From Treponemataceae bacterium (lineage in GTDB: Bacteria; Spirochaetota; Spirochaetia; Treponematales; Rectinemataceae): a DNA stretch of 64,000 nt. Position 1 is the first letter of the stretch. Every line of letters begins with the position of its first letter. Both the position numbers and the translations under genes were made by a program. The stretch spans positions 256,001 to 320,000 of the forward strand of contig CAXXVZ010000002.1 in the NCBI GenBank assembly GCA_963678065.2, given 5' to 3'. Below the pieces are notes generated by a model. It did no database searches. It was given only the letters and a program-made list of their open reading frames with translations, and was not told the DNA's origin. This document shows, in pieces, positions 2,801 through 64,000 of this stretch.

Positions 2801-2817
2801 AAAAAGAAGAATCACGC

Positions 2818-45408: not shown

Positions 45409-45471
45409 GCTCCGTCCCGCTCCTTGCGTTCCCGCGTTTTCGCTTTTCGCGCTGTGTCCGGTGCGCAGGCC

Positions 45472-47231: not shown

Positions 47232-47253
47232 TCTCTCCCCCCGACGCGCTGCC

Positions 47254-48525
47254 TTACTTCGGAATTCCGACCCCGGTCACGGGGTTGAAGGACTTGGCTT
47301 CGAGATCCCACTCGGCGTCGAGCCGCTTAAGCCCTTCGTCGAGACTCCCTCCGATGAGGAGTTCAGCAGCCGTCTTGTAGGCGAAGTTGCGGAAGGCGGG
47401 AGGCAGCTCGTTCAGGCTCACCTTGTTGTTCCACATGAGCTGTTTGGAAGGAACCTTTCCGTATACCGAGAGAACCTTTTCGAGCACGGGCGCGGCCTTG
47501 TAGTTGATCTCTTCGACCGTGGAGGGAATGGCGCTCATCGCGGAGGCGAACTTGACATAGTTGTCTTTCCTGAAGAAGAACTTGATGAAATCGACGCAGG
47601 CCTTGAGCCTGACCGGGTCCTTGGCGGCCTCGGCCGAGATCGCCCAACCCTGGGCAGTGGAGCCGCCGAAGAGATTCAGCTTGCCGTCGAGGGAAGGAAG
47701 CGGGAACCATCCGAGTTCGAAGGAGGGATCGGCGTCCTTGATCTGCTGGAACATCCAGGTGCCGGAGAAGAGCATGGCGGCCTTCCCGCTCACGAGGATG
47801 GATGCTGTCTGATTGTCGGCCGTGGAGAGGAAGCCAGGGTCGACATAGCCTGCGCGGAAAAGGTCGACGAAGGCCTGCATGCCGCGGCGGGGCTCGGCGT
47901 CCGTCCACTTCACCTTGCCTCGGTAGCGGTCGGCGATCCAGTTGGGATTCTTCGCGGTGACTTCGTCGAAGAAATACTTGCTCCAGAGGAAGCCGAGGTG
48001 CCAGATATCCTTGCCGCCCACGACCATCGGGGAGACGCTCTTCGCCTTGATCTTGTCGCAGAGTTCGGTGAACTCCTTGTAGGTCTTGGGCTCGGAGAGC
48101 TTGTTGTCGCGGAAGAATTTCGCGTTGTACATCATGCCGAGCGGAGCCTGAGCCATAAGGGAGACCGTGTAGACCTTGCCGTCGAACTGTACGGGATTTT
48201 CGACGAGGTCGACGACTTCCGCGGGCAGGACGGCGAGCTTCCCGGCGCGCACGTACATAGGCGTGTCGCGCATCTCGATCAGGTCGGGGAATTCGCCCAC
48301 CGCGTCTTTGACCTTGATGAAATCGAGGTAGGGGCCGGAGGGAGAGGGATATTCCGTCACCTTCACGCCGGGATTCGCCTTCATGAAGGCGGCCACGGAA
48401 TTGGAGATCAGTTCCTTGGCGAGCGGATCTCCGCCCGCGTAGATCATGGAAATCTTGATCTGCGCCGACGCGATGCCGGCCGCCATCGCGAGGGCTAGCG
48501 CTGCCATCACCAGTTTCTTCGACAT
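47254..48525 (-). CDS. Carbohydrate ABC substrate-binding protein
   Basis: Signal peptide MSKKLVMAALALAMAAGIASA; GEFPDL, MMYNAKFF, PKTYKEF, GKAAMLFSGTW. Confidence 0.92.
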   Translation of the reverse strand: MSKKLVMAALALAMAAGIASAQIKISMIYAGGDPLAKELISNSVAAFMKANPGVKVTEYPSPSGPYLDFIKVKDAVGEFPDLIEMRDTPMYVRAGKLAVLPAEVVDLVENPVQFDGKVYTVSLMAQAPLGMMYNAKFFRDNKLSEPKTYKEFTELCDKIKAKSVSPMVVGGKDIWHLGFLWSKYFFDEVTAKNPNWIADRYRGKVKWTDAEPRRGMQAFVDLFRAGYVDPGFLSTADNQTASILVSGKAAMLFSGTWMFQQIKDADPSFELGWFPLPSLDGKLNLFGGSTAQGWAISAEAAKDPVRLKACVDFIKFFFRKDNYVKFASAMSAIPSTVEEINYKAAPVLEKVLSVYGKVPSKQLMWNNKVSLNELPPAFRNFAYKTAAELLIGGSLDEGLKRLDAEWDLEAKSFNPVTGVGIPK

Positions 48526-48644
48526 AGGGACCCCCTGTTATCATTCACGCGCTTCTCTCCCCGTGGATGTCCGGACTCGCCCGGCGGGGAAGAATGCGCA
48601 TTCTCTGCAGCATCATGGTGGGGGCGAATTCCCGAATCCGCAAT

Positions 48645-48683
48645 GCGGCCTTTTTAGTGACTTGCTGCCTGATTTTTAAGCAC
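48645..48683 (-). promoter_or_regulatory. Direct repeat (22-nt period), candidate binding site of the AraC-type response regulator
   Basis: gcggccTTTTTAgtgAC and gcctgaTTTTTAagcAC upstream of a minus-strand CATGAT -10 with a poor -35. Confidence 0.35.
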
Positions 48684-48845
48684 GTGCCCCCTGTCGGCCA
48701 GAATCGGGGATGCCACTCCTTGCGCCCTTTCCGGACGGAATGAATACTGCGTGGGCAGGCGGCAGACCTGAAAGCGGCGCGGGCCCGGCGACCGCCTGTC
48801 GGCCCATCACGACTCACAGCAACAGGCCGCGGCAGGGAGAGCGAA

Positions 48846-51086
48846 ATGACGGACGCGAAGAACGACGAACCCTTCATCAACATCTGGTTCGGCAATTTCT
48901 ACGAGCCGGCCTACAGCGACAGGAGCTTCGTGGACCACGCCCTCGACGAGATACGGGAACTCGGCTTCAACAATGTCATGCTGGACTCGAAATCCTGGGA
49001 AGACTTCTTCGCGCGCTACGATGGCGCCCAGGCGAGCCCCTATGTGCACATGCAGGAATACATGATGGAAGCGATGCGTTCGCGTTCGCTGTCGCATAAC
49101 TTCCTCGCCATCTACCTCAACGGGGACAACCTCTATCCCCACATCCGTTTCAGCCCTCCCGTCTACGGCGAATCCGTGACAGCCGCCGACGGAAGCGACG
49201 GGCGCTGGTACAAATACTGGTCACCGAAAGCCCGCGACCTGATGATCTCCCACGTGGCCGGCCTCTTGCGTCTTTATCGCGACAATCACTCCGAATTGAA
49301 AGTCGACGGCCGCATCCGCCTTCCCCTGTGCAGCATGTGGGACCCCATCGTCGCCCCGAGCTTCGACGACGAAGGCATCGCGCGCTACCGGTCCTGGCTG
49401 GCCGCGGAGTACGGCCGCGACATCGGGCGGCTCAACGGTGCCTACGGGAGCGAGTTCGCCGGATTCGACGAGCTCGCTCCCGCCGATTACTGGTACCCGC
49501 TCAAGTACGGCGCGGCCACCCTGTTCACCAAAGACGATGTCGATGCCCTTTCGCCGGCCTTCCGGATCTGGACCGACAACATGAAGTGGAGGTTATTCGA
49601 ACTCGCAGACTATTTCGCCGCCATGAAAACCCGTTTCGCGGCCCTGGACTCCGGACTCTGGCTGAGTCCGAACATCAGCCAGTGGAACATCTTCCTCAAC
49701 ATCAACGGCTCGCGGCTTCCCGGAGTCTCCTTCGGCGACCTCTGGGACACGGCCAACCGCGGCATCGATCCCTTCGTCCTTTGCGACACTGTGGACAACT
49801 GCACGTTCACGGTCGTGCCTGTCAGTCCGCAGGGAGACGCCGACGCTTACGTCGCGGCCTGCCAGGCCGCCATGATACGGAGCATGAACCGCGGCAGGGA
49901 TTTCACGGTCGGCATCTTCTTCGGCCGCTTCCTGTACAACGACATCTACCGTTGCGTCAGCCCCGCCGAGACGGTCGCGAGCGTCGTCGCCTCGGGCGCG
50001 TCCGGCTACTTCGTCTACGGCTACGGCGGCATGGACGACGGCGGCATCATGCACAGGATGGACCCGGCCTTCAAGGAATCGATCCGTGCGGGAAATGCCT
50101 GGGCGAAGGAAGTCATCCCCCTTCTCGGCGCGAAAAAATCGGATGGCATCGCCATCCTCTACCCCTCGGCCATGGCACTCCTCGAACCTCTCGGCGTAGA
50201 GGGCAATGAGGAGAGGAGGCTGGATTTTCTCGGCTCGTACCGCTCGGCGTGCGACTCAGGCTTCCATCCCGACATCCTCTCGATAGAACAGATCGCCGAA
50301 GGCGGGCTCGAGGGCTACTCGACTCTCGTCATCCCCGCCGACGACTGCTACGCCGCACGGCCGGTTCCCGAAGCCGAGCGGAGGCTCGACGAATGGGTCC
50401 GCGCAGGTGGCACTCTCATCCACGGCCCGCGCGACCGCCTTGTCAAAAACGCCTTCGGGATCGAGGGGCGCCGGATGGAAAAGGATTGCATGCTCTACCA
50501 CGAAAAAGCGCTCGTGCAGGGCAGCGATTTCGAGTCTTTCTCTGAAGGGGAGGCTGTGGCCACGTGGATCGGAAGCGGTGGAATCTGCGTCGCGCGCCAC
50601 GGCAGAGGCGCCGGCCGGATCTACTCCTTCGGATTCAGATACGGCTACTCATATATCGCCCGCATCGCGCCCCACGTCCCGCAGGAACAGGGGAACCAGG
50701 AGTTGTACCCTGTCGCCTACCTGTCGCGCGATCCGTTCAGGGACATCCTCGCCGCGGACTTTGCCGATCGAGCTGGGGATATCGGCCCGAATGCCGGTCG
50801 CAGCCCCTGCCGGGGAGTCAAGGACATCGAGTTCGCCGCCTTCGAAAACGGGCTCGTCATTGTAAATCATTCGTCCTACCCGTACAGACTGGATGATCCG
50901 GCACGCGTCGACGCGGCCACAACCGCCGTCGCTGCTGGGGGCGGAGCGGCGGGCACAAATCCGGACATGGGCGCGCTCAGGTCTGGGGCTGGACAGCGGC
51001 ATTTCCAGATACCGGCGGGCAATGACATCCTCATGCCCCATTCGGCGGTGTTCATCGGAAGGCGCGGGAATCTACGGCCTGTCTAG
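48846..51086 (+). CDS. GH42-like TIM-barrel protein with trimerisation domain, non-canonical active site
   Basis: LDEIRELGFNNV, YRSWLAAEYGRDIGRLNGAYGSEFAGFDE, IAILYP, YSTLVIP...WVRAGGTLI. Confidence 0.6.
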   Translation: MTDAKNDEPFINIWFGNFYEPAYSDRSFVDHALDEIRELGFNNVMLDSKSWEDFFARYDGAQASPYVHMQEYMMEAMRSRSLSHNFLAIYLNGDNLYPHIRFSPPVYGESVTAADGSDGRWYKYWSPKARDLMISHVAGLLRLYRDNHSELKVDGRIRLPLCSMWDPIVAPSFDDEGIARYRSWLAAEYGRDIGRLNGAYGSEFAGFDELAPADYWYPLKYGAATLFTKDDVDALSPAFRIWTDNMKWRLFELADYFAAMKTRFAALDSGLWLSPNISQWNIFLNINGSRLPGVSFGDLWDTANRGIDPFVLCDTVDNCTFTVVPVSPQGDADAYVAACQAAMIRSMNRGRDFTVGIFFGRFLYNDIYRCVSPAETVASVVASGASGYFVYGYGGMDDGGIMHRMDPAFKESIRAGNAWAKEVIPLLGAKKSDGIAILYPSAMALLEPLGVEGNEERRLDFLGSYRSACDSGFHPDILSIEQIAEGGLEGYSTLVIPADDCYAARPVPEAERRLDEWVRAGGTLIHGPRDRLVKNAFGIEGRRMEKDCMLYHEKALVQGSDFESFSEGEAVATWIGSGGICVARHGRGAGRIYSFGFRYGYSYIARIAPHVPQEQGNQELYPVAYLSRDPFRDILAADFADRAGDIGPNAGRSPCRGVKDIEFAAFENGLVIVNHSSYPYRLDDPARVDAATTAVAAGGGAAGTNPDMGALRSGAGQRHFQIPAGNDILMPHSAVFIGRRGNLRPV

Positions 51087-51316
51087 ACCATGAAAGCCGA
51101 CGGTCATAAGCCGCATCGACATCCACATCATGTCTTTGACAAATTGCCCGCGGCAAAAGCTCCGGAAAAAATTCGACTGTCGCTGTATCGTCTCGACCTG
51201 TCGGACCATTGAACGCTTCCCGGAGGGGTGGGTGTATTGCTTGCTTTGGGCTGTACGGGATGGCCCTGTCTCGCTGGCACCAAGTACTTCAGTCGACGCA
51301 ATACCCGCACAACCTG

Positions 51317-51715
51317 TCAGTACGCACATCCGGAGACGAGGATCACGTTGCCGCAGTGAATGCCAAAGTCGCCGGTGCGAATGACAGCGAATGACTTCTT
51401 CATCTCCGCGTGGAACTGCGGCCCCTGTACGAACTCAATGGGGATACCGTCCAGCAGTTTTTCGAGCTTCAAAAGCGTTTCCGGCGCACGCTCATGGATT
51501 TCGGTAGTGATGATCGCCCGTTCGACGCAGAACTCTGCGAGGACACCTTCGAGTACTTGCGCGTTTGTCGGAACATTCGGGATAAACGAAAGATCGACTA
51601 GTTCGACGTCATCCGGAATTCCAAAACCGGAATCGACAATCGCCACGTATTTCCTGTGGCCCGCACTCGCCAGCGCCCGCTTCAACTGCGGATTGAGAAT
51701 TCCGCCTCTTATCAT
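51317..51715 (-). CDS. RbsD/FucU-family pyranase or mutarotase
   Basis: GILNPQL...AGHRKYVAIVDSGFGIP, VDLS, AVIRTGD, NVILVSG; conserved N-terminal His. Confidence 0.88.
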   Translation of the reverse strand: MIRGGILNPQLKRALASAGHRKYVAIVDSGFGIPDDVELVDLSFIPNVPTNAQVLEGVLAEFCVERAIITTEIHERAPETLLKLEKLLDGIPIEFVQGPQFHAEMKKSFAVIRTGDFGIHCGNVILVSGCAY

Positions 51716-51763
51716 GCCATCCCTCCGAAACTCGAAATCATTTGTTGCGCTTTTATTGAAGAA

Positions 51764-52735
51764 TCAATACGCCTCTTTCCACATGTATCGTCTCTTTGAC
51801 ATAGGGTGGTTTCTGATCTCAGCCATTATTGAAACCACATAACGCTCGACCGGAATCATCACTACGGGATTGAAAAATTCGACTACCGCATCGCTTATGG
51901 CGTTCAGACCCAAGTCCCTCGCGTCAATTACGGTTACCTTGGACGCGTGCTTCTTGAGGAACGCAAGACAGCGTTCGTCGAGAGGTCGCGTACGTCCTTC
52001 ACTCATAAAGAGTATTATCGGCAAGTTCCTGTCGGTGGTCTCGAATGGTCCGTGAAAATACTCGCCGGTATGAATGACTACGGCATGCTTCCATTGCATT
52101 TCCATAAAGTGGCATGCGGCCATAGTATAGGCAGTGCCGAAATTCGATCCGCTTGCCATCACATAGAATATTTCTTCATCCTTGTACTTTTCCGCAAATT
52201 CTTTTCCGATCGGCAAGATATACTTTTTAGCTTTGGAGACGATCAGGTCGATTTTTTCGAATGCTTCCATCGCTTCAGGGTATTCGCTGTATCCCTCGAA
52301 TTGTTCCAGGATCTCGAATCCCAGACGAAGCGATATCGCCTGATTTGCCTGACTATAAACCTGATCGTCGCCGTTGGAATACACTACGACATACCGGGCA
52401 TTTGCGGCCATTGGCGTATCCGGCCGCCCTGTCATCGCTATCGTCAATGCGCCTCTTGAATTGGCGACTTTGACCGCCTCTACGGTCTCACGAGTTCCTT
52501 GCAAGGAACACAGGATGCATATACACCGTTCATCCAATGCATCAGGTGCCGCATGAACGAACTCATTGCTTGTGTATAACCCTACACCAAAGGATTTTGC
52601 CTTGCTCGCGAGGAGGTATTTCCCTGGATAAATGGCCGCCAAGGATCCGCCACAACTGATGAAATACACGGCTTTAAGCCCGCCGGCAGCAGTTATCCTC
52701 GTCTTGATATCTGCGATGATGTTCTTCACGTCCAT
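51764..52735 (-). CDS. frlB: Fructosamine-6-phosphate deglycase (SIS domain, FrlB-like)
   Basis: VYFISCGGS, YTSNEF, GTRETV, CHFMEMQW, HTGEYFHGPFE, GRTRPLDER, HPMSKRRYMWK; ATG 52735 after AAGGAG. Confidence 0.88.
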   Translation of the reverse strand: MDVKNIIADIKTRITAAGGLKAVYFISCGGSLAAIYPGKYLLASKAKSFGVGLYTSNEFVHAAPDALDERCICILCSLQGTRETVEAVKVANSRGALTIAMTGRPDTPMAANARYVVVYSNGDDQVYSQANQAISLRLGFEILEQFEGYSEYPEAMEAFEKIDLIVSKAKKYILPIGKEFAEKYKDEEIFYVMASGSNFGTAYTMAACHFMEMQWKHAVVIHTGEYFHGPFETTDRNLPIILFMSEGRTRPLDERCLAFLKKHASKVTVIDARDLGLNAISDAVVEFFNPVVMIPVERYVVSIMAEIRNHPMSKRRYMWKEAY

Positions 52736-52756
52736 GACCAAGCTCCTTCCTCCAGG

Positions 52757-52784
52757 GTGTCCCGCCCGGGTCCGGGCGGGACAC
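52757..52784. other. Perfect GC-rich hairpin between the SBP gene and frlB
   Basis: GTGTCCCGCCCGG-GT-CCGGGCGGGACAC. Confidence 0.6.
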
Positions 52785-52799
52785 TGATTCGCTGTCTGT

Positions 52800-54374
52800 T
52801 TACTTGCTTACGACGACATCTTCGAGTGTAATTCCCGAAATGAACGTCAGGATGCCATCGAGATTCTTGAAATTGCTGACCTTATTGCTGCGAGCAAAGC
52901 ACTGCTCTCTGTAATTAATGTAGACAAATGGAGACAGATCGAGAGCTCTGAGTCTGAACTTGTCGTATATGGCAGCGCGTTTGGCCGGATCGAATGTCCG
53001 CCTGCCTTCAGCGAGCAGCTTTTCGATCTCATCGTCCTGGAACCATGCGGAGCTGTTGAGCCGGGGCTCGCCGCCAGCAAAGTAATTCGCGCACCAATCC
53101 ATGTCGACAATATTTCCTGTCGTACCGGTGATCAGGAAGTCGTATTGCCCTTTATTGGTCCTGTCGATGCGGGTGGCCCAATCCGGCAGTTCAACCTCGA
53201 CGGTTATGCCGATCTTCTTGAGACTGTCCTGGATCACAAGAGCGGTTTGCTTGTGCATCTCGTAGGTTGCGGTCGAGAGCATTTTGACCTTGAAACCGTT
53301 GGGGAAACCGGCCTCGGCGAGAAGCGCTTTGGCCTTCGCAAGATCGTACGAGAAGTACTTGTCGTACTTGCCATCGTAGCCGTTCTGCCCCAAGCGCGTC
53401 GGGAATCCGAAGATCTGGGTTCCTCTGCCCATAAATGCCGTATCGATGACAGCCTGCCTGTCGACTGCGTAGGCTACAGCTTTTCTGATTCTTGAATCAG
53501 CAAAGATGCTTCCTTTCTGGCAATTGAACTGGATCATCATGAACGGCGCTTCGGAAATATCGACTATAATTCCTTTTTCTTTCTGGAAGTTGATTACTTC
53601 CTTTGAAGGCACGTAATCAATAAGATCGACTTCCCCGGACCTGAGCGCATTTGCTCTCGTTGTATCATCGGTATAGAAAACGAACCGCAGTGTCTTTGTT
53701 GCCGGCTTATTCGGTTTATAGAATCCATTGACCGCGGTGAGCACGATCTCGCGGCCCTTTTCCCACTTTGTGAACTTATAGGGACCGCTTCCCATGGGGT
53801 TGGCATCGAGATCATTGTTGTGGGATTGGGTCCAGGCTTTTGAAACGATGGCGCTCTCAGGCAAGGCAAGATAATCGATAAAGGGAGCGACCGGCGCTTT
53901 CAGGATGATCTTGACGACCTTTGCCGATACCACTTCGCAACGATCGACGAGGGTTCTGAAATCAGCGCCGAACGTTGCTTTTGTCTTGGTATCCATGATC
54001 CGTTCGATCGAGAACTTTACATCTTCGGCAGTTACCGTTGTACCGTCGTGGAATGTCGCATTCGGTTTTATTTTGAATGTAAAGGTCAGGCCATCGTTTG
54101 ATACTGTATATGATTCCGCAACCTCGTACCCGATTTTCCCGTCGGCCTCGTAGCTGACAAGGCCACGATATACATTCTGCTTGATGATCCGGGTAGCTTG
54201 ACCTGACTGCATATGGGGATCCATGGTTGCAGGTTCCAGGCTAAGACCCATTCTGAGTTCATCCACCAAGCCGCTCGATGCGGCTGTGGCGCCTCCCGCT
54301 GCTCCGACCGCCAGCGTGCTTGCCAGCAACAGCGCGACTACGAAGCACGACTTGAAAAGCTTCAAACGCTTCAT
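52800..54374 (-). CDS. Opp/Dpp-family (family 5) substrate-binding protein
   Basis: Signal peptide; EPATMDP, FHDGTTVTAEDVKFS, GSGPYKF, RIRKAVAYAVDR, YDLAKAKALLAEAG. Confidence 0.92.
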   Translation of the reverse strand: MKRLKLFKSCFVVALLLASTLAVGAAGGATAASSGLVDELRMGLSLEPATMDPHMQSGQATRIIKQNVYRGLVSYEADGKIGYEVAESYTVSNDGLTFTFKIKPNATFHDGTTVTAEDVKFSIERIMDTKTKATFGADFRTLVDRCEVVSAKVVKIILKAPVAPFIDYLALPESAIVSKAWTQSHNNDLDANPMGSGPYKFTKWEKGREIVLTAVNGFYKPNKPATKTLRFVFYTDDTTRANALRSGEVDLIDYVPSKEVINFQKEKGIIVDISEAPFMMIQFNCQKGSIFADSRIRKAVAYAVDRQAVIDTAFMGRGTQIFGFPTRLGQNGYDGKYDKYFSYDLAKAKALLAEAGFPNGFKVKMLSTATYEMHKQTALVIQDSLKKIGITVEVELPDWATRIDRTNKGQYDFLITGTTGNIVDMDWCANYFAGGEPRLNSSAWFQDDEIEKLLAEGRRTFDPAKRAAIYDKFRLRALDLSPFVYINYREQCFARSNKVSNFKNLDGILTFISGITLEDVVVSK

Positions 54375-54462
54375 ACACTTCCTCCTTCACCCACCGCACG
54401 ATATCCGTCTGCCTCCAAGGTGGTTCGCAACGAAGCGACTCCCCGAAGACATAAATCCCCTG

Positions 54463-55299
54463 TCAAAAACCATCCTTGAGCTTAGGATCAAGAACGTCAC
54501 GAAGCGCGTCACCTAAAAGGTTCGTTGCAAGGATCATCAGACTGAGAAGAAGCGCGGGCCAGACCATATACATGATGTTCACGGACAGATAGTTTTTGGC
54601 GTCTCCGATCATTTGTCCCCACGAAGGATCCGGAGGTTGAACTCCCAAACCAAGGAAGCTCAAACCTGATTCCAGAAGAATCGCATTTGCGATGGTCAGA
54701 CTTATTTGAATCATGATCGGCGAAAAGATATTGGGGATGATCGACTTTGCCATCACCCGAAGGGAACTGGATCCGATGGATATGTCGCTTTCGACGAATT
54801 CCAGTTTTTTGATTTGAAGCGTTGCCGCAAATGACAATCTGGCGAAGTGCGGCGTATAAAGGATACCCACAGCGATCGTCAGGTTTTTTATGCCGGCTCC
54901 CCACAAGCCTACCACCATCATTGCGAGGAGTATCGGAGGAAAACACAGTATGATCTCCACCGCCCGCATGAGCGCGTTTCCGACGCGGCCGCCTACATAT
55001 GCGCCCGTCACACCGATGATCGTCCCGGAGATCAAGGCAATGATGGTTCCCACGATTGCGACAGTGATGGAAGGGCGTATTCCCACGATCAACCGACTGG
55101 CTATGCTTCGGCCAAATTCATCGGTGCCAAGCGGGTAGCTTGCCGACATTGGCTTGAGAATTTCCTTCGTATTCATCGCGCGGGGATCATGTCTGATGAA
55201 CGATGGCCCGAATATCGCGATGAACGCGAGGGGGATCAGTATCGCGAGACTTACTACGAATTTCGAGTTGTGAGCGCACCTTTTGAGTGTATCCATCAT
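54463..55299 (-). CDS. Opp/Dpp-family permease (C-type)
   Basis: LGTDEFGR, ESGLSFLGLGVQPPDPSWG, NLLGDALRDVLDPK. Confidence 0.92.
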   Translation of the reverse strand: MMDTLKRCAHNSKFVVSLAILIPLAFIAIFGPSFIRHDPRAMNTKEILKPMSASYPLGTDEFGRSIASRLIVGIRPSITVAIVGTIIALISGTIIGVTGAYVGGRVGNALMRAVEIILCFPPILLAMMVVGLWGAGIKNLTIAVGILYTPHFARLSFAATLQIKKLEFVESDISIGSSSLRVMAKSIIPNIFSPIMIQISLTIANAILLESGLSFLGLGVQPPDPSWGQMIGDAKNYLSVNIMYMVWPALLLSLMILATNLLGDALRDVLDPKLKDGF

Positions 55300-56252
55300 C
55301 CCACCTCCGCTCTCGCCCGTGGATCCACTACGCCATACAAAACATCAACGAGGAGATTGGCGAGGATGAACAGGGATGACATTACGAGGAGACAGCCTTG
55401 AATCAGGGGATAGTCTCTATGGTTTATTGCCTTGACCAAAAGCGTCGCCAAACCAGGCCAATTGAATACGTATTCGCACAGTACTGTGCCGCCGATCAGG
55501 TTCCCGAGTTGGAGCCCTATGATTGTGATCACCGGGATGATCGCATTCCGGATTACGTGTCGCCTGATGACAACCCGTTCCGGCAACCCCTTGGCCCTCA
55601 GCGCGCGCACCGAATCGCGCGACAGCGCCTCGAGCATGGATGACCGGGTCATACGCATGATTGAAGCCGCGAGACCTAGAGCCAATGTACTGGCAGGAAG
55701 TACCAGCTTCAGAATGTGCTTCAAGGGATTTTGTGAAAAATCGGTATAGCCGCTGGATGGCAGAATCTTCAGCTTCAGGGCGAATGCGACAACAAGCAGA
55801 TATCCCAGGACATAGACAGGAATTGAATTTCCTACAGAGGCGGCTACAGTCAGGGCCATATCAGACAATTTGCCTCGTTTCAACGCTGCCCAGATGCCAA
55901 ATGGTATTCCAATGAAGCAGGCAAGAATCAGTGAGGATATCGCGAGTTCCAAAGTCCTCGGCAACCTCGAAGCTATCGATACGCTGACACGCTCGCGCTC
56001 GCTGTACGATTTCCCCAAGTCGCCGCGCGACAAATGTAAAAGCCAATTGCCATATTGGACGAGCACAGGCTTGTCCAGACCGAGTTCTGCCCGCAACTCC
56101 GCGACTACGGCCGGATCAGGCGCGGTGTCGGTGCCGAGCATCATGAGAACAGGATCGCCGGGCATCATCAAGTCGGCGAAGAAGACTATCGTCATGACGA
56201 CTATGACTTGTACTAAAGCCATGGACAAACGTCTTGCCAAAAAACGAATCAT
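55296..56252 (-). CDS. Opp/Dpp-family permease (B-type)
   Basis: Start MIRFLARR at 56252; MPGDP, LGLDKPVLVQY, RAKGL, HVIRNA, RDYPLIQG. Confidence 0.92.
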   Translation of the reverse strand: MIRFLARRLSMALVQVIVVMTIVFFADLMMPGDPVLMMLGTDTAPDPAVVAELRAELGLDKPVLVQYGNWLLHLSRGDLGKSYSERERVSVSIASRLPRTLELAISSLILACFIGIPFGIWAALKRGKLSDMALTVAASVGNSIPVYVLGYLLVVAFALKLKILPSSGYTDFSQNPLKHILKLVLPASTLALGLAASIMRMTRSSMLEALSRDSVRALRAKGLPERVVIRRHVIRNAIIPVITIIGLQLGNLIGGTVLCEYVFNWPGLATLLVKAINHRDYPLIQGCLLVMSSLFILANLLVDVLYGVVDPRARAEVG

Positions 56253-57235
56253 GGTTTTGCCCCCTCCGACCTTGCCAGGTGACACGCTACTGAATGCTCA
56301 CTCGACAGATACGAGACGACGGGCGGTTCCTTGCTGCAAATTCCCATTGCATACCTGCAACGCGGGTGGAATCTGCACCCTCGAGGCGGATCGACAGGGC
56401 TCGGAACCTCGCCCTGCAGAATTATTCTCTCTGGTTTTGCGGCAATCTCTATGTTTGGCATCGCCGACAGCAGTGCCTGAGTATACGGGTGGCTTGCACT
56501 TGAGTAGAGTTTATCGGCCCGGGCCATTTCGATGATCTGACCGAGATACATTACCGCAATCCGATCGGACATGAATTTTACGACAGACAGGTTGTGAGAG
56601 ATGAAAATATACGTCAATTGAAATTCAGCCTGGATGTCTTTGAGCAGATTCAGAATCTGCGCCTGAATAGACACGTCGAGCGCGGAAACCGGCTCATCGC
56701 AAACGATAAGTTTCGGATTCATCGCTATCGCGCGAGCTATTCCTATACGCTGTCGCTGCCCTCCGGAGAACTCGTGCGGGTACCTGTGCACATAATCCTT
56801 GCTCAATCCGACGAGATCCATAAGACGAAGCACTTCACGCTCCAGGCCGGCTTCAGGCCGGATCCCATGAACCCTGAACGGATCGGCGATTATATCCATG
56901 ACAGTTTGACGAGGATTCAGTGAATCGAATGGCTTCTGGAATACCATGCGCATCTGGGCACGCTGTTCGCGCAGTTTATGGCCTTTCAGTATCCGTAAAT
57001 CGCGGTTTTCAAACAGGATTTCGCCTTCGTCGGGCTCGATGAGTCTGAGCACGATTCTGGCCAGCGTGCTTTTGCCGCAACCGGATTCTCCGACCAATCC
57101 GAATGTCTCGCCTTTCATCACTGAAAATCCGACTCCATCTATGGCATGAACGAAAGCCCTGGATGAGCCGAAGAGCCCTCTTCGCACCGGGAAGTATTTT
57201 TTCAGGCTTCGTGTTTCCAGAAGGACTTCAGCCAA
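56249..57235 (-). CDS. Opp/Dpp-family ATP-binding protein (F-type)
   Basis: [43 protein letters not shown]. Confidence 0.94.
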   Translation of the reverse strand: MAEVLLETRSLKKYFPVRRGLFGSSRAFVHAIDGVGFSVMKGETFGLVGESGCGKSTLARIVLRLIEPDEGEILFENRDLRILKGHKLREQRAQMRMVFQKPFDSLNPRQTVMDIIADPFRVHGIRPEAGLEREVLRLMDLVGLSKDYVHRYPHEFSGGQRQRIGIARAIAMNPKLIVCDEPVSALDVSIQAQILNLLKDIQAEFQLTYIFISHNLSVVKFMSDRIAVMYLGQIIEMARADKLYSSASHPYTQALLSAMPNIEIAAKPERIILQGEVPSPVDPPRGCRFHPRCRYAMGICSKEPPVVSYLSSEHSVACHLARSEGAKP

Positions 57236-58229
57236 TTCGGGCCCCCTCTTTTATTACCGAAGCCGCTTTCCAGCATTTGACCCGATGCCCGCCGGCAAAC
57301 TCGACCATGGCGGGTTCGGTCTCGAAGCAGACATGGTCCGCCATATGACAACGAGTGCAGAACCTGCAACCTTTGGGCATGGATTTGATATCCGGAACCG
57401 TTCCGACGATACTGTGCAAGCGTGATTCATTCGCATCGATTTTCGGTATCGAGTGCATGAGACCAATCGTATAGGGATGGATGGCGTTTTTAAAAATTGT
57501 CTTTGCAGGCGCCTCCTCCATCAGTTTTCCCGCGTACATCACAAGGATCCTGTCGGCTATCTCCGCGACGACGCCCAGGTCGTGCGTGATTATCACTATG
57601 CCCATTCCATATTCGTCGCGGATATTTCGCAGGAGATCGAGTATCTGTGCCTGCACCGTGACATCGAGAGCCGTAGTCGGTTCGTCAGCGATAAGAAGCT
57701 TGGGGTTGCATGCCAGGGCTATCGCGATCATCACACGCTGGCACATGCCGCCCGAGAGTTCGAACGGATATGAATTGAATACGCGCTCCGGGCTCGCAAT
57801 CCCGACCGATCGAAGAAGATTCAGCGCGCGTTCCCTGGCAATTCGGTTACCAATTCTTTCGTGAACCTGTATTGCCTCTACAATTTGATAGCCAGCCGTG
57901 AACAGCTGATCGAGAGACATCATAGGATCCTGGAAGATCATCGAAATGTCTTTCCCGCGAAGGCTGTACATCTCCTGTTCGTTGAGTGCCAGCACATCGC
58001 GGCCTTCGAACCGGATCGAACTCCCAGGCACAATGCGAGCCTGATTCGGCAATAACCGTATGATCGACAATGATGCCATCGTCTTTCCGCTGCCGCTTTC
58101 GCCGACAATCCCCACTGTCTCGCCCCGGTCGACTTCAAAGCTGAGGCCCTCGACGGCAGAAAATGACTGATGCTTCTTGCCGAACGCCATAGTGAGGTTT
58201 TCGACCGAGAGCAGCGGGGATGCATGCAT
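57228..58229 (-). CDS. Opp/Dpp-family ATP-binding protein (D-type)
   Basis: [39 protein letters not shown]; start 58229 (ATG) or 58232 (GTG). Confidence 0.94.
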   Translation of the reverse strand: MHASPLLSVENLTMAFGKKHQSFSAVEGLSFEVDRGETVGIVGESGSGKTMASLSIIRLLPNQARIVPGSSIRFEGRDVLALNEQEMYSLRGKDISMIFQDPMMSLDQLFTAGYQIVEAIQVHERIGNRIARERALNLLRSVGIASPERVFNSYPFELSGGMCQRVMIAIALACNPKLLIADEPTTALDVTVQAQILDLLRNIRDEYGMGIVIITHDLGVVAEIADRILVMYAGKLMEEAPAKTIFKNAIHPYTIGLMHSIPKIDANESRLHSIVGTVPDIKSMPKGCRFCTRCHMADHVCFETEPAMVEFAGGHRVKCWKAASVIKEGARIG

Positions 58230-59980
58230 CACCGAACTCTCTCCCTGAGCCTCGCGGTTTCCGGTTTGTTGACAATCAATGAATCATCAGCACCTTCCAG
58301 AACCACGCCATACGACTCAGTCGCTTTTTCTCTGGACACTTTCCCGTCAATGACATCGGACAGCACGGCTTCAGCCGATCGTTCGAATGGAATGCCATAT
58401 CCGCCCGATCCTGGCGTCAGGACACTCACGATGTCCCCTTTGTTGAGGAGTATGTCAGTGCATTTTGAAGGGAGACGATCTACCGATCCGCTCACGCGAC
58501 GCAGCGTGTACTGCCCACCATAGCCGCATTCCCCGCCATCGAGACCCCAAGGAGGAATAATCTGCCTGTCACCCAAACCGGTATAGGAGACTTTGTCCAT
58601 AAGGGCCTCGAAATCGCGCTGGATGCCAAGTCCGCCGCGATACTTTCCCGGGCCGCCGCTATCGGGGCGAAGTGCGTATTGTCTGATGAGCACCAAGGGG
58701 AATTCCATTTCCAACGCTTCTATCGGAAGATTCGAAGTGTTCGTCATATGGACCTGAACGCCGCTCAAACCGTCTTTGTGCCTGCTCGCGCCGGAGCCGC
58801 CCGCGATCGTCTCTAGGTATACGTAGAAGCGATCTTTGTCGTGAGGATCGGAGGCGCTGAAGATGGCCGATGTCACCGAACTGTTGCAGCATGCGATGGC
58901 GCGTTCCGGCACCGCTGGAGCCAGTGCTCCGAATATCACATCTGCCACACGCTGGCATGTATCGATCCTTTCTCCTACCGGAGCCGGATTTTGCGCATTG
59001 ATGATGAGTCCCGGCTCGGCAATCACATTGAATGCGCGGTAGATGCCGGCATTGGAAGGTATGTCCGGATCGATCAGCGCCTTCAAGGAATAGAACACAG
59101 TAGCCAGGAGACCATTATAGGTTACGTTGATCGGACCAGGTACCTGACGATGCGTACCGGCGAAGTTGAGTTCCATCGTATCGTCGAGGATGGTGATCTT
59201 TACGGAGATGGGGATGGGATCAGGACAGGCCGCGCCCGCGTCGTCCATATAATCGACGAATACATACTCGCCCTTTTTGATCTTCGAGATACCGGCGCGA
59301 AGCCTCCGCTCCGCATAATCCTGCAGCTCGTACATGCTGTCGATCAGGGTCGATCCGTAACGCCGGTATGCTTCGGCGAGGCGCCTGAGTCCCACGCGGT
59401 TGGACGCGATCTGCGCTTGAAGATCCCCGAAACGCTCCTTCGGAAGACGGCTGTTGACCATGAGAAAACCAAGAATGTCCTCATTCAACTCGCCTTTTTC
59501 GCATATGCGAACGAGAGGAATCTTGATTCCTTCCTGATAGATGCTGACAGCATCGCCGGACGTCGACCCCGGGACTTTTCCTCCGACATCGCTGTGATGT
59601 GCGAGATTGGCGACCCATCCTATAAGTTCATCGCCGTCAAATGCCGGCGCCACGACAGTGATGTCGGGCAAATGCGTTCCGCCGCCGTTGTAGGGATCGT
59701 TTCCCATGAACATATCGCCAGGTTTTATTGCCTGGAGAGGATGTTTCTTGTAGACTTCCTTGACTATTCCAAGCAGGGAACCGAGATGCATCGCCACATG
59801 CTCTGCCTGGGAGACCATATTCCCTTCGGGATCAAATATCGCCGTGGAGATATCGCGACGTTCTTTTATATTGGTCGAGTAGGCACTCTTTATGAGCGCG
59901 ACACCCATCTCTTCGGCTACTGAAAGCAGCAAATTGCCGATGATCTCGACGGTTACGGCATCGATCTTTCCTTTCGTCAT
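58229..59980 (-). CDS. hyuB: Hydantoinase B / 5-oxoprolinase-type subunit
   Basis: AEEMG...YSTNIKERRD, HVAMHLGS, NDPYNGGGTHLPD, HHSDVGG, HMTNTSN, DSGGPGKYRGG, TPGSGGYG. Confidence 0.92.
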   Translation of the reverse strand: MTKGKIDAVTVEIIGNLLLSVAEEMGVALIKSAYSTNIKERRDISTAIFDPEGNMVSQAEHVAMHLGSLLGIVKEVYKKHPLQAIKPGDMFMGNDPYNGGGTHLPDITVVAPAFDGDELIGWVANLAHHSDVGGKVPGSTSGDAVSIYQEGIKIPLVRICEKGELNEDILGFLMVNSRLPKERFGDLQAQIASNRVGLRRLAEAYRRYGSTLIDSMYELQDYAERRLRAGISKIKKGEYVFVDYMDDAGAACPDPIPISVKITILDDTMELNFAGTHRQVPGPINVTYNGLLATVFYSLKALIDPDIPSNAGIYRAFNVIAEPGLIINAQNPAPVGERIDTCQRVADVIFGALAPAVPERAIACCNSSVTSAIFSASDPHDKDRFYVYLETIAGGSGASRHKDGLSGVQVHMTNTSNLPIEALEMEFPLVLIRQYALRPDSGGPGKYRGGLGIQRDFEALMDKVSYTGLGDRQIIPPWGLDGGECGYGGQYTLRRVSGSVDRLPSKCTDILLNKGDIVSVLTPGSGGYGIPFERSAEAVLSDVIDGKVSREKATESYGVVLEGADDSLIVNKPETARLRERVR

Positions 59981-62040
59981 TTCCTGCCTCCAACGTTAGA
60001 GACGATCAAGTTATCGAATCCGTCCGTATATGCCTTCCAGCCGGGAGGAATGACGGACGTCGAGTCCATCTGCTCGATGATTGCCGGCCCTTCTATCGTG
60101 CAACCCGGCTCGATATCTTCCCTTTGATACACCACGGTAGGCCGATATGCTTTCTCGCCTTCGAAGCGAACATTTCGTGTTTCCAGCGGCTTGGGTGGCA
60201 GCGCATCGGGCCGGATCGAGCGGGCGGCAAGTTCCGGTTTCACGATGATGCCGATGGCGCTCAGGCGATAATTCACCATCTGCACGCGCATATTCTTGTT
60301 ATGGTAGCCGTATGAACGGTTGTGTTCGTCGTGGAATTTCCCGATCATCGCGGCCATCGCCGATTCATCGAAATCCCTGTCTACATCGATTGCTATCTCA
60401 TAGTTTTGCCGTTCATAGCGGCACTCAACGGCACAGGTGTAGCGCCTGTCTTTCCGTTTGACGTTCTGCTTGTCGAGCATCGCGTCGCCTTCTTCGAGAA
60501 GACTTGCGATAATGGCCTTGACCTTGCCAAGATTTTCCCGATTGGCGATCAGGACGTTGGAACGGCTTACGTCGAACTTCGTATCGGCCATGAGCAGACC
60601 GAGCGAACAGAGTGTACCCGGAGCCGGAGGAATGAGAACCTTGGAGATGCCCATCTCTTCGGCAACCTCGCACGCATGGAGCGGGCCGGCTCCTCCGAAC
60701 GCCATAAGCGTAAATTCCCGCACATCGTAGCCGCGCTCGACAGAGACCATACGGATAGCGCGTATCATGTTCGAGTTTACGACCGATACCACACCTGCCG
60801 CGGCGTCCTGAATGCTCAATGCCGACTTGCTGCAGATCCTCGTTTCCAATGCTTTCTCCGCAAGCTGTATATCGACATCCATACGGCCGCCGAGAATCTT
60901 TGTCCTGTTGAGCTTGCCAAGCACGATATTTGCGTCCGATACGGTAGGTTCTACGCCACCGCGCATGTAGCATGCCGGCCCTGGCGTGGCGCCCGCGCTC
61001 CGTGGTCCGACCTTCAAGGCTCCGCCATCATCGATGGATGCAATAGATCCGCCGCCCGCGCCGACTGTGATGACATCCAGCATCGGTATGCGGGCTGGAT
61101 AGCCCTCAACCAGGCGCTCATTCGAAACCTGCATTTTGCCGTTCTCGATGAGGCTGATATCGGCACTCGTGCCACCCATATCGAATGATATCACTTTGTC
61201 CATCCCGCACCGGCTTCCGATATATGCCGCGCCTACGACGCCGGCGCTTGGACCGGAAACTGCCGTTTTGATCGGACAATCGACTGTCTCGCCGATCGAT
61301 ATGACCGATCCGTTCGATTGCGTCACATATGGAGCTACGCTGATTCCCGCTTTTTTGATTGATTGCTCGAAATTATGGACATACTTTGCCATCACAGGGC
61401 CAAGATAGGCATTCAACACTGTTGTACTCATCCTGGAGTACTCGCGGAATTCAGGCACCAGCGCGCTAGAGATTGTCACATACGCTTCCGGAAATTCCTT
61501 GTCGATGATGCTTTTTATTTTTTTCTCGTGATCGGGGTTTATGAATGAGAAAAGCGTGCACACGGCTATTGCTTCCGCCCCGCGCTTTTTCAAGTGAGAG
61601 ACAGCTTTCAGGACACTTTCATCATCCAGGGGCTCTCGCACGGAACCGTCGCAAAGAATGCGCTCATCGACTTCGCATTTGAGGTCGGCCGCGACCAGGC
61701 TTTCCGGCTTATCCTTGAGCAGATCGTATAATGAAGGCCGTTTTTGCCAGCCTATCTCCATGAGGTCTTTGAAACCTCTCGTGGTGACCAGCCCGAGCCT
61801 TGCTCCTTTTTTTTCTATCAAAGCGTTTGTAGCGACGGTAGTGCCATGTGCCAGGTATTCAACATCGAGCGGATCTATTTTCTCTTCTTCGAGAATGTGC
61901 AGTATTCCGCTGACGATCGATTTGGAAGGATCCTGTGGCGTCGAACTCTGCTTATAGTTGAACAATCGTCCTGTTTTGGTATTGAACACAGAGAAATCCG
62001 TGAAAGTACCACCCACATCGACACCAATCATAAAACCCAT
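59977..62040 (-). CDS. hyuA: Hydantoinase A / 5-oxoprolinase-type ATP-binding subunit
   Basis: GVDVGGTFTD, HGTTVATNA, REYSRMSTTVLNAY, SGPSAGV, DMGGTSAD, GAGGGSIA, GPRSAGATPGPACY, FGGAGPLHA. Confidence 0.92.
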   Translation of the reverse strand: MGFMIGVDVGGTFTDFSVFNTKTGRLFNYKQSSTPQDPSKSIVSGILHILEEEKIDPLDVEYLAHGTTVATNALIEKKGARLGLVTTRGFKDLMEIGWQKRPSLYDLLKDKPESLVAADLKCEVDERILCDGSVREPLDDESVLKAVSHLKKRGAEAIAVCTLFSFINPDHEKKIKSIIDKEFPEAYVTISSALVPEFREYSRMSTTVLNAYLGPVMAKYVHNFEQSIKKAGISVAPYVTQSNGSVISIGETVDCPIKTAVSGPSAGVVGAAYIGSRCGMDKVISFDMGGTSADISLIENGKMQVSNERLVEGYPARIPMLDVITVGAGGGSIASIDDGGALKVGPRSAGATPGPACYMRGGVEPTVSDANIVLGKLNRTKILGGRMDVDIQLAEKALETRICSKSALSIQDAAAGVVSVVNSNMIRAIRMVSVERGYDVREFTLMAFGGAGPLHACEVAEEMGISKVLIPPAPGTLCSLGLLMADTKFDVSRSNVLIANRENLGKVKAIIASLLEEGDAMLDKQNVKRKDRRYTCAVECRYERQNYEIAIDVDRDFDESAMAAMIGKFHDEHNRSYGYHNKNMRVQMVNYRLSAIGIIVKPELAARSIRPDALPPKPLETRNVRFEGEKAYRPTVVYQREDIEPGCTIEGPAIIEQMDSTSVIPPGWKAYTDGFDNLIVSNVGGRK

Positions 62041-62109
62041 CTGACTACCCCTTCAATCCGAACAAGGTCTGCTTCAATGGCCTGCGTATAGTGACATTCG
62101 CCACCAACG

Positions 62110-62991
62110 CTATGTGTGATCCGAACCGAAACGCGTGCCATAGCCGAATGCGCCGTGCTCCATACAGGTTTTTGCGGCCATTGCCGCGCCGTTTTCAAGC
62201 GATTCCCTCACCAAGCGGTTATATTTCTCTGAGCCAGTTTCCAGTTCGCCAGCGAAAGCCTTTTTGCCTCTCATGAGGGAGACGAGAAATCCCGCAGCGA
62301 ATGAATCTCCCGCGCCTAGCGTATCCACCGCTTTGACCTGATACGCTTCCTGCCGGAAAATCGCATGCCCATCGAATAACAATGAGCCGCGCTGCCCCAT
62401 TGTAGCGATTATTATTCCGCAGCCCTCACGGTGCAGCCTTCTGCACGCGTCGATCACATGGTCGGCGGCAACATCGCCGCATGAAATGAATCCAAACGAC
62501 ACGTTCGGGGATACTTCTCTGCTTCGAGCGGGGTCTTTCCATGAATTGGAAAAGTCGTAAGAGACAGGAACCTTCAACGATGCAACCAGCCCCAACTGAG
62601 TGTCGAAATGGCCATTGTTGCTCGTATGCACGAGATCGAAATTCTTTATATATGCACAGTCAGCGGAAGTCAGACGGATGGGGTGATCTTTCGCGACGCC
62701 GCCTTTGTTGCTTTGTACAAATATGCGCTCACCATCGACAATATCGACCATCGCGTAGCCGTTCTCACCTTCGTAGTGCCTGCAGTGTGAGCGATCTATT
62801 TCGATAGCATCAAGCACCGAGAGTACGTGCGCCGCGATTTCATCGGTACCGAACACGCCCATATAGGCAGCCGGAACGCCCAATTGCTTTGCGAATACCG
62901 CAACATTGAGCGCCTGCCCGCCAGGATACATGTATCCCGAATTCAAGTACTTATCGCAGACGTTGTCTCCGATACCGATTACGCCAAGCAA
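62110..62991 (-). CDS. frlD: PfkB-family fructosamine kinase (FrlD-like)
   Basis: IGDNVCDKY...YPGGQALNVAV, GENGYA, DGERIF...SNKGG, SYDFS, VDTLGAGDSFAAGF. Confidence 0.88.
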   Translation of the reverse strand: MLGVIGIGDNVCDKYLNSGYMYPGGQALNVAVFAKQLGVPAAYMGVFGTDEIAAHVLSVLDAIEIDRSHCRHYEGENGYAMVDIVDGERIFVQSNKGGVAKDHPIRLTSADCAYIKNFDLVHTSNNGHFDTQLGLVASLKVPVSYDFSNSWKDPARSREVSPNVSFGFISCGDVAADHVIDACRRLHREGCGIIIATMGQRGSLLFDGHAIFRQEAYQVKAVDTLGAGDSFAAGFLVSLMRGKKAFAGELETGSEKYNRLVRESLENGAAMAAKTCMEHGAFGYGTRFGSDHT

Positions 62992-63035
62992 AGTGCCCCC
63001 TGACGAATAAACGAGCCGTATTCACATTCATCACA

Positions 63036-63087
63036 GTCGTCTTATGACTGTATAAGTTATCATAGAACGTATTATTCCAGTTGTCAA
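63036..63087 (-). promoter_or_regulatory. sigma70 promoter of the frlD operon with two 13-bp operator boxes
   Basis: Minus strand TTGACA(63087-82)-17 nt-TATGAT(63064-59); boxes GTCGTCTTATGAC (63036-48) and GTTATCATAGAAC (63056-68). Confidence 0.75.
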
Positions 63088-63112
63088 TCTTTTTTTTGCT
63101 CAGATTGATAGG

Positions 63113-63835
63113 CTAAAACACAAACTTATACCTGTCTCCCCGTATGAATTGGAGAGAGAGATGCACCGGACGGCTGGCGTCGTCGTATACGATCCCTTTG
63201 AGCCTGAAAAGAGGGGAGTTTGGCCGAATGTTCAGTTGAGATGCGATGGCGAAAGTAGCCAGCGATAGCTCAAGAGTCTTTTTGGCGCTGGAAAGCCTGA
63301 CCCCATGCTCCTTGAGCACCTCGTAAAGAGATTTAGTCTCCAAGTCAGACTGCATGAGATACGAGAAAGGTTTATAAGAGAAATAATTATTCTCAAGAAG
63401 AAGCAGATCGCCATCCGCGTACCGAAGACGCTGGATATGAATCACGTGATCGCCTGGTTCAATGAGCAGCTCTCGGCGTTCGCTTTCGTCTGGTTCCCTG
63501 ATCTCGCGTTTTATGACCTTGCTTCCAGGCCGCATCCCATTGTATGCGCATGCGGTCGAGAAACTGACGAATTCGATTATCTTTCGCTCCAGTTTCGGTT
63601 TTTCGACAAATGTTCCTTTGCCCTGGTGCTTTTCGAGCACCCCTTCCTTAACCAGCTCGGTGATGGCTTTCCGAACGGTGATGCGGCTTATTTTGTACTT
63701 TTCACTCAACTCGCTTTCAGATGGAATACAGGTACCATACCCGTATTCACCGGATTCAACTGCTGCGGCCAAGACTTCCTTCAGCTGTTGATAGAGTGGA
63801 GTCACGATGTTTTGATCAAGAATTTGCTGAGGCAT
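63113..63835 (-). CDS. GntR/HutC-family regulator with UTRA domain (FrlR-like)
   Basis: PLYQQL, IPSESELSEKYKISRITVRKAITELVKEG...QGKGTFV; UTRA RLRYADG, SLYEVL, RGDRYKF. Confidence 0.93.
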   Translation of the reverse strand: MPQQILDQNIVTPLYQQLKEVLAAAVESGEYGYGTCIPSESELSEKYKISRITVRKAITELVKEGVLEKHQGKGTFVEKPKLERKIIEFVSFSTACAYNGMRPGSKVIKREIREPDESERRELLIEPGDHVIHIQRLRYADGDLLLLENNYFSYKPFSYLMQSDLETKSLYEVLKEHGVRLSSAKKTLELSLATFAIASQLNIRPNSPLFRLKGIVYDDASRPVHLSLQFIRGDRYKFVF

Positions 63836-63855
63836 TCATATCTCCTGCCTGGAAT

Positions 63856-63897
63856 GTTATAATATGTCATAATACGATGCGATCGGCATTTTGCCAA
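63856..63897 (-). promoter_or_regulatory. sigma70 promoter of the GntR gene with two overlapping operator boxes
   Basis: Minus strand TTGGCA(63897-92)-17 nt-TATTAT(63874-69); boxes GTTATAATATGTC (63856-68) and GTCATAATACGAT (63866-78). Confidence 0.7.
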
Positions 63898-64000
63898 GCA
63901 TAATAGTATTCCTTAATGACCACTAGATGCTGGACACGGAAGGCGCTCCGCCTGACGAATATCTGTCAAACTGCGATCGCTCGAGCCTTAAAAACGCGCT

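Follow-up and report, generated by a model that had tools for sequence, protein, structure and literature searches.

Gene content and organization of the operon

The window analysed here comprises 64,000 bp of the genome of a Treponemataceae bacterium (Spirochaetota, Rectinemataceae; assembly GCA_963678065.2, contig CAXXVZ010000002.1, positions 256,001 to 320,000 of the forward strand) and contains a putative operon for the catabolism of glycated amino acids. Eleven open reading frames (ORFs) occupy positions 51317-63835 on the minus strand in the order gntR-frlD-hyuA-hyuB-oppDFBC-SBP-frlB-rbsD, where SBP denotes a solute-binding protein. Their Pfam domains follow in the same order (GntR + UTRA, PfkB, Hydantoinase_A, Hydantoinase_B, two ABC ATPases with oligo_HPY, two BPD_transp_1, SBP_bac_5, SIS, and RbsD_FucU), and the catalytic motifs are intact in the operon enzymes that were inspected. 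In gene order, the intergenic gaps measure 121, 69, -4, -4, -8, -37, -4, 88, 58, and 48 bp. An earlier note on this DNA had described a co-oriented unit of eleven genes in this order, and the ORF calls, the Pfam domains, and the gap sizes between -37 and 121 bp all agree with that description. Its further view of a single, tightly coupled unit holds for the six genes from hyuA to oppC, which overlap by 4-37 bp (the remaining gaps are 48-121 bp long), but not necessarily for gntR: because the best promoter-like site (11/12) falls between gntR and frlD, gntR may have a transcript of its own, with the catabolic unit possibly starting only at frlD. The second best site (10/12) precedes gntR. Contigs from an independent groundwater DNA run span 30 of 30 bins of positions 48000-64000, and the operon is therefore no assembly artefact.

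The total of 12 promoter-like sites corresponds to the shuffle level (mean 12.4), as do the terminator counts. The GntR protein has the winged helix-turn-helix and UTRA domains of FrlR-type GntR/HutC repressors (Pfam), and Escherichia coli FrlR binds GT(N)6AC (bioRxiv 2020.01.13.904318). One GT-N6-AC site lies on or beside each candidate promoter and a third copy lies inside gntR (Table 1). A 10-mer shared by these candidate sites has three matches in the window versus 0.15 expected, and 3 of its 11 genome-wide matches fall in an 840-bp stretch of the gntR/frlD region, the pattern having been built post hoc from these very sites. A looser operator pattern was not enriched across the window (4 versus 3.06), and the candidate operator was not conserved in most relatives when the same pattern was applied.

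Table 1. Predicted genes and candidate regulatory sites of the operon (window coordinates; aa, amino acids).
Feature	Position	Strand	Basis
GntR/UTRA (HutC-type, FrlR-like) putative repressor, 240 aa	63113..63835	-	Pfam; best NCBIfam PRK11402, below cut-off
Sigma-70-like promoter candidate for gntR	63869..63897	-	10/12 consensus; pattern match only
Candidate GntR operator GT-N6-AC, overlapping the gntR -10 box	63866..63875	.	pattern
Candidate auxiliary operator within gntR	63508..63517	.	pattern
Sigma-70-like promoter candidate for frlD and downstream genes	63059..63087	-	11/12, best of the region
Candidate operator directly downstream of the frlD -10 box	63039..63048	.	shared 10-mer
FrlD-like PfkB ketosamine 6-kinase, 293 aa	62110..62991	-	NCBIfam; DxxGAGD at 223
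HyuA, ATP-binding subunit of ATP-dependent lactamase (predicted), 687 aa	59977..62040	-	Pfam; motifs; identities
HyuB, metal-binding hydrolytic subunit (predicted), 583 aa	58229..59980	-	metal tetrad alignment; identities
ABC ATPase, OppD type	57228..58232	-	Pfam
ABC ATPase, OppF type	56249..57235	-	Pfam
ABC permease, OppB type	55296..56285	-	Pfam; identities
ABC permease, OppC type	54463..55299	-	Pfam; identities
AgaA-like family-5 solute-binding protein, 524 aa	52800..54374	-	PDB match AgaA 6HLX
FraB/FrlB-type ketosamine-6-phosphate deglycase (SIS), 325 aa	51764..52741	-	PDB matches; E214, H230
Divergent RbsD/FucU-family pyranose-furanose isomerase, accessory, 132 aa	51317..51715	-	NCBIfam; residues

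Functional assignment of the encoded proteins

Among the 54 PDB sequences matched by the binding protein at a threshold of E 1e-20, AgaA (6HLX) was by far the best (E 9e-141, 473 bits versus 197 bits for the next). Identity amounts to 46% with AgaA, 46% with a protein of the tumour-inducing (Ti) plasmid pTiChry5, and 28% with MoaA; these and the other Ti-plasmid gene names are presumptive and follow from gene position. We take the ligand of AgaA to be agropinic acid, a mannityl-pyroglutamate lactam, and MoaA to be its open-chain counterpart with respect to the ligand. All 24 AgaA-like sequences compared, many of which are near-identical, share the residues R62, M279, Y371, R402, and R489, which are absent from MoaA and from four unrelated family-5 control binders. 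By sequence, the solute-binding protein is a member of the AgaA-type group. The permeases show a similar affiliation, with 56% identity of the OppB-type protein to both its aga and its pTiChry5 counterparts and 49-52% for the OppC type. Named relatives of the AgaA-like binder belong to Clostridium, Tepidanaerobacter, Paenibacillus, Neobacillus, Bacillus, and Aggregatilinea among the 120 of 218 matches listed, and the 53 plasmid records matched at E 1e-90 are all from Rhizobiaceae. An orphan AgaA (86%) that is interrupted and flanked by insertion sequences, with no hyuAB, is located on an Agrobacterium vitis F2/5 plasmid (L161:9815-13318).

HyuA contains two DxGGT motifs and a GxxPGP motif, and HyuB residues D43/H103/D106/H128 align with D41/H99/D102/H124 of CapB, whose Asp-His-Asp-His metal tetrad is essential in caprolactamase (PMC8453981). 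Both subunits thus carry the motifs of the ATP-dependent lactamases of the HyuAB/CapAB/oxoprolinase type. They lie outside the CapAB families of NCBIfam, with scores of 600 and 304 against cut-offs of 1000. HyuA is 44% identical to AgaF, 42% to HyuA of pTiChry5, and 64-73% to clostridial copies, and HyuB is 45% identical to AgaG and 40% to HyuB of pTiChry5. The PxpABC 5-oxoprolinase subunits (LamB/YcsF, CT_A_B) are absent from the operon according to Pfam, and pxpA and pxpC are located side by side elsewhere in the host genome, where they represent a separate PxpABC-type oxoprolinase. For this reason, free 5-oxoproline is unlikely to be the main target of HyuAB.

The best NCBIfam family was fructoselysine 6-kinase for the kinase (E 6e-52; next family E 4e-19) and fructoselysine-6-phosphate deglycase for the SIS protein. 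With scores of 177 (curated cut-off 247) and 105 (430), respectively, both proteins fall outside the equivalogs of E. coli FrlD and FrlB. A PDB sequence search at E 1e-12 found no solved relative of FrlD. The deglycase matched FraB 9OTJ (281 bits) and Bacillus subtilis 3EUA (275 bits) much better than the fructose-lysine enzyme FrlB 8GLR (99 bits); 9OTJ is FraB of Salmonella, and the entries were identified from PMC12359202 and PMC10285752. Its residues E214 and H230, 16 residues apart, align with the catalytic E214/H230 of FraB. Judged by these matches, the deglycase belongs to the FraB enzymes of the alpha-amino type, being nearer to the alpha-glycated than to the epsilon-lysine enzymes, and the B. 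subtilis kinase/deglycase pair favours alpha-glycated amino acids (PMC12632257).

The RbsD-like protein scored 90.8 against an NCBIfam cut-off of 93. It keeps H20 and D28, and G98, H102, and H120 replace the B. subtilis RbsD residues H98/K102/Y120, which are presumably ribose contacts. It thus departs from D-ribose pyranases, which combine His20 and His98/Lys102/Tyr120 with a score above the cut-off.

Conservation of the gene set

A HyuB tree was calculated from the 145 proteins of at least 450 aa from all loci, reduced to 108 at 95% identity. HyuB of the window was placed in a clade of 40 tips (window included; support 1.0), and the sister of this clade is a group containing AgaG and HyuB of pTiChry5 (joint support 0.997). 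A SIS deglycase is encoded within 9 kb in 29 of the 40 clade tips, 25 of which have the kinase too; the AgaA-like binder occurs in 13/40 tips, and deglycase, kinase, and binder occur together in 12/40, the related tips not being independent in any of these counts. All 50 linked SIS proteins keep the catalytic Glu and His. When 20 high-scoring HyuB loci from outside the clade were re-fetched at 12-20 kb, none was linked (0/20), and among the 68 outside tips the pair was found in only 2, both rhizobial, though most had 1.5-kb flanks. The earlier note had proposed neighbourhood and phylogeny checks on its combination of frlB, frlD, hyuA, and hyuB; the clade-specific linkage supports this combination. 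An rbsD-like gene is present in only 2/40 clade tips and is thus not a core gene.

The genome scan yielded nine loci. The six close ones, all from Clostridia, have deglycase and kinase matches beside hyuAB in several gene orders, the kinase gene being in pieces in L003 and truncated at the end of the contig in L008, whereas the three distant loci have neither gene. A Priestia filamentosa plasmid carries the order MFS-SIS-hyuA-hyuB-PfkB-GntR. In L003 (C. symbiosum ATCC 14940), the frlD fragments lie at 2712-3035; frlD is likewise fragmented in the similar loci L047 and L048 and is absent from L050, L052, and L053, which keep hyuAB-frlB.

Further genes adjoin hyuAB in some relatives. In three loci, an Opp system not of the AgaA kind is followed by an M20 amidohydrolase and a 115-aa ORF immediately upstream of frlD/hyuAB; these loci (L004:6071-7846, L045:5201-7020, L071:4252-6073) may take glycated peptides as input. 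A pair of Amidohydro_2 and UPF0047 (YjbQ) genes stands beside hyuAB with SIS or PfkB (L087:11804-13089, L106:13238-14544, L114:3964-5302), and pieces of a group II intron reverse transcriptase are found immediately upstream of hyuA in L106 (297-3469). A second SIS paralogue (30%), flanked by genes for an ABC permease and a Gfo/Idh/MocA oxidoreductase, is encoded at L158:9338-10297; this locus includes ROK genes and, over 20 kb, no kinase resembling FrlD. An M24 peptidase in L068 was considered as an AgcA-like lactonase and rejected, as the identity is only 24% and unspecific.

Origin of the operon

Third codon positions have a G + C fraction of 0.55-0.65 across the operon's 11 genes versus 0.81-0.84 in three flanking genes. 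A HyuB match was found in 16 of 301 sampled genomes of the host phylum and exceeded 46% identity only in the host, whereas clostridial HyuB copies found in the genome scan reach 69-76%. The gene set is rare: only the centre genome was positive in samples of 401 genomes (strong HyuB score) and 301 genomes (binder; clostridial family). The operon was likely acquired horizontally. The alien codon composition of this island would also suit the view that unrelated catabolic genes have come together by chance on acquired DNA, but the overlapping reading frames and the fact that Clostridia, Bacilli, and Rhizobiaceae have all retained the set, with varying gene order, speak against it, and the clade linkage as opposed to the unlinked outside controls refutes it; this explanation is extremely improbable.

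An ORF of 746 aa (48846-51086, plus strand), which is divergent from the genes of a sugar ABC system and a two-component system at 43582-48525, has no Pfam or NCBIfam match. A related strain in the groundwater run lacks 136 bp between this ORF and rbsD (window positions 51088-51225).

Related operons on Ti plasmids

The same combination of genes exists on pTiChry5 (NZ_KX388536.1, 59719-70511), where one operon has the order hyuA-hyuB-SIS-fructoselysine 6-kinase-ABC ATPase-permease-permease-AgaA-like binder. Close matches to its SIS protein occur in 10 records, six from Agrobacterium and four from Neorhizobium, and all three Neorhizobium loci that were opened contain the full gene set. Since pTiChry5 also has a separate mocDE-like pair, the kinase and deglycase of the hyuAB operon suggest a second Amadori substrate, and the association of this second pair with a lactamase and an AgaA-like importer fits a lactam opine. 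Chrysopine tumours reportedly contain deoxyfructosyl-5-oxoproline, an opine of the chrysopine family, the use of which the plasmid is said to confer (reports of Chilton and of Vaudequin-Dransart in 1995). The plasmid is of the chrysopine type (PMC8087989, PMC6733357), deoxyfructosyl-glutamine is present in chrysopine tumours (PMC4231840), and hydantoinase A/B of Ti plasmids has already been proposed to open lactam opines, namely the succinamopine lactams (PMC6733357).

The likeness of the binder, permeases, and HyuAB to the aga proteins (44-56% identity) raises the question whether agropinic acid itself, with its reduced, mannityl form of the lactam, is what the window operon degrades, in the manner of the aga genes. 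We consider this very improbable: no match to the FAD oxidoreductase AgaE was found in the operon or in any clade locus, the chemistry of FrlD/FrlB needs a C2 ketone that the mannityl group does not have, and the host was detected in groundwater, sludge, and biofilm runs.

Proposed pathway and alternative substrates

From the gene identities, motifs, relatedness, and co-conservation, we infer a substrate and a series of reactions. On the most parsimonious reading, the operon probably serves to import N-(1-deoxy-D-fructos-1-yl)-5-oxo-L-proline (fructosyl-pyroglutamate, DFOP), a lactam formed from fructosyl-glutamine or fructosyl-glutamate, to open its ring with ATP, to phosphorylate C6, and to release glucose-6-phosphate and glutamate. 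DFOP would be taken up by the AgaA-like ABC importer, and HyuAB would spend ATP to open the lactam, yielding fructosyl-glutamate. FrlD would phosphorylate C6 before or after ring opening, and the FraB-type deglycase would then produce glucose-6-phosphate and glutamate. Deglycases act via an enaminol and a Schiff base (PMC10285752), a route that an amide nitrogen should not support; on these chemical grounds, ring opening must precede deglycation. The GntR/UTRA protein would repress the operon via the GT-N6-AC sites until a phosphorylated intermediate binds, and the RbsD-like protein might conceivably accelerate the conversion of pyranose to furanose by which the C6 hydroxyl becomes free. This substrate and route had been put forward in the earlier note, and they now gain independent support at the sequence level from the AgaA-like binder, the alpha-type deglycase, the HyuAB motifs, the clade-specific co-conservation, the pTiChry5 and Neorhizobium operons, and the separate pxpA/pxpC genes.

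A number of observations weigh against this assignment. The pTiChry5 proteins are distant from those of the window (28% identity for the deglycase, 40% for HyuB), with HyuB outside the window clade in the sister group and the deglycase in another branch, so that the two operons may have been assembled separately by convergence. In the metagenome scan, from which the best 80 of 531 relatives were used, the query was derived from Frl-linked genes, so that the proportion of linked loci is overestimated. The RNA run gave short contigs, some of other origin, over only 5 of 30 bins. The kinase is broken or missing in some relatives (L003, L053), and the AgaA-like binder is confined to its 13 tips, the others having sugar ABC, TRAP, MFS, or unrelated Opp transporters. 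Finally, 11/40 clade tips lack the SIS deglycase; three of them are on very short contigs, one has the kinase only, and seven have neither gene. Of these seven, six have TRAP genes, five of them together with FGGY kinases, BtpA, or epimerase-like barrels, which indicates more than one substrate context for the HyuAB clade.

Such frlB/frlD-less relatives with TRAP genes and an FGGY kinase beside HyuAB are found at L073:331-9626, L078:2423-11752, L159:10054-19980, and L107:532-11731, with the addition of a BtpA/SgcQ protein (L073, L078, L159) and/or xylose-isomerase-like barrels. The FGGY kinase of L078 matches xylulokinase best, and the barrels of L159 and L102 match fructoselysine 3-epimerase. 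Judging from these matches, the FGGY and BtpA/epimerase genes are a possible alternative kinase-deglycase pair. The neighbourhood of FrlC-like 3-epimerases, xylulokinase-like FGGY kinases, and BtpA proteins to close HyuAB relatives, the RbsD-like gene of the window operon, and the presence of two clade-type HyuAB copies in different contexts in one clostridial genome would be consistent with another cyclised ketosamine as the substrate, such as the psicosyl C3 epimer, an adduct of pyroglutamate derived from a pentose, or a lactam based on a different amino acid, with DFOP at most a side substrate. This is unlikely, however, given that the window operon lacks an epimerase and uses the hexose-type FrlD/FraB pair, that the RbsD-like protein is rare in the clade and has changed binding positions, and that the likeness to AgaA points to a pyroglutamate ring.

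Alternatively, this might be an ordinary operon for fructosyl-glutamine or fructosyl-glutamate, with import of the open-chain form and HyuAB repairing the lactam or free pyroglutamate formed in the cell. Glutamine adducts cyclise readily, many clade loci have transporters unrelated to AgaA, and three have the added M20 amidohydrolase. The much greater similarity of the binder to AgaA than to MoaA argues against it, as does the occurrence of PxpA/PxpC in the host and of pxpA in three of four clostridial genomes tested, and we regard it as quite unlikely.

Novelty and implications

The earlier note knew of no described locus combining FrlD/FrlB with HyuAB. This claim is weakened because pTiChry5, which has been sequenced completely, carries the combination in its Amadori-opine region: all components come from known families and the complete set is located in a region already described, which reduces the novelty, even though the interpretation itself is strengthened. 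Shao et al. (2018) may already have assigned the pTiChry5 operon to DFOP. No frlB/fraB/mocD gene together with a hydantoinase/oxoprolinase gene in one bacterial locus was found among the papers listed in the literature searched, which covered few subscription journals, nor did any of these papers use the term DFOP, and the extracts of PMC8262997, PMC10410297, PMC3163468, PMC4070556, PMC6341043, and PMC6546132 do not describe the operon. N-fructosyl pyroglutamate is named mainly in plant and food metabolomics papers among the matches listed, and the same literature contained no gene-level route for it. What appears to be new is the spread beyond the agrobacteria into gut and environmental Clostridia and Bacilli, together with the sister loci containing FGGY, BtpA, and epimerase genes.

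More tentatively, and with considerable doubt, the HyuAB clade as a whole may be a dedicated family of Amadori lactamases, as yet without a name, that allows bacteria of gut, soil, and sediment to utilise Maillard products in cyclised form. If so, DFOP would be processed via FrlD/FraB, and a second branch would combine FrlC-like epimerases with a xylulokinase-like FGGY kinase and BtpA/SgcQ, the latter two as a kinase-deglycase pair not recognised so far that handles epimeric adducts or those of pentoses, giving the BtpA family a function. The aga and chrysopine systems of Ti plasmids would then be offshoots of a general scavenging route. The proposed pathway would extend Amadori catabolism in gut Clostridia past fructose-lysine and fructose-asparagine, link an opine phenotype known from chrysopine agrobacteria to genes, and provide an example of an ATP-dependent lactamase whose substrate ring is N-glycated; the operon lends itself to an in vitro test with four proteins, and cultured carriers whose loci are intact include Neorhizobium galegae HAMBI 540, Priestia filamentosa Hbe603, and Clostridium transplantifaecale.

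Comparison with known systems

The operons of pTiChry5 and Neorhizobium galegae are the closest counterparts, as their gene set in one unit is identical to the core of the window operon. The pTiChry5 operon differs in gene order, in having LysR and LacI neighbours instead of GntR, in a fused ATPase, and in the lack of rbsD, and the identities range from 28 to 56%. The octopine Ti plasmid's aga region, whose genes we take to be agaDBCA and agaEFG, shares the AgaA-like importer and the AgaF/AgaG-like lactamase with the window at 44-56% identity. In contrast to the window operon, its substrate is the reduced mannityl form, the open-chain product is cleaved by the FAD oxidoreductase, and its operon has neither kinase nor deglycase; a pair of SIS and fructoselysine-kinase genes (mocDE) is encoded on the same plasmid in another operon than agaEFG.

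The Salmonella fra system for fructose-asparagine resembles the window operon in combining a kinase and the FraB deglycase (E214/H230) with an extra amide-hydrolysing step. In Salmonella, this step is catalysed by FraE, a periplasmic asparaginase that acts on the side-chain amide without ATP, whereas the window encodes a predicted cytoplasmic, two-subunit ATP-dependent lactamase and an ABC importer. B. subtilis frlBONMD and E. coli frlABCD/frlR have FrlD, FrlB, and a GntR/UTRA repressor with a GT-N6-AC operator in common with the window, but lack a lactamase and use sugar-type ABC or APC transport, and the E. coli Frl enzymes, whose family cut-offs the window proteins do not reach, prefer epsilon-lysine adducts. 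CapAB and the eukaryote-type 5-oxoprolinases share the fold family, the ATP motifs, and the Asp-His-Asp-His site with HyuAB of the window; the lactams known to be their substrates are small and bear no sugar at the ring nitrogen.

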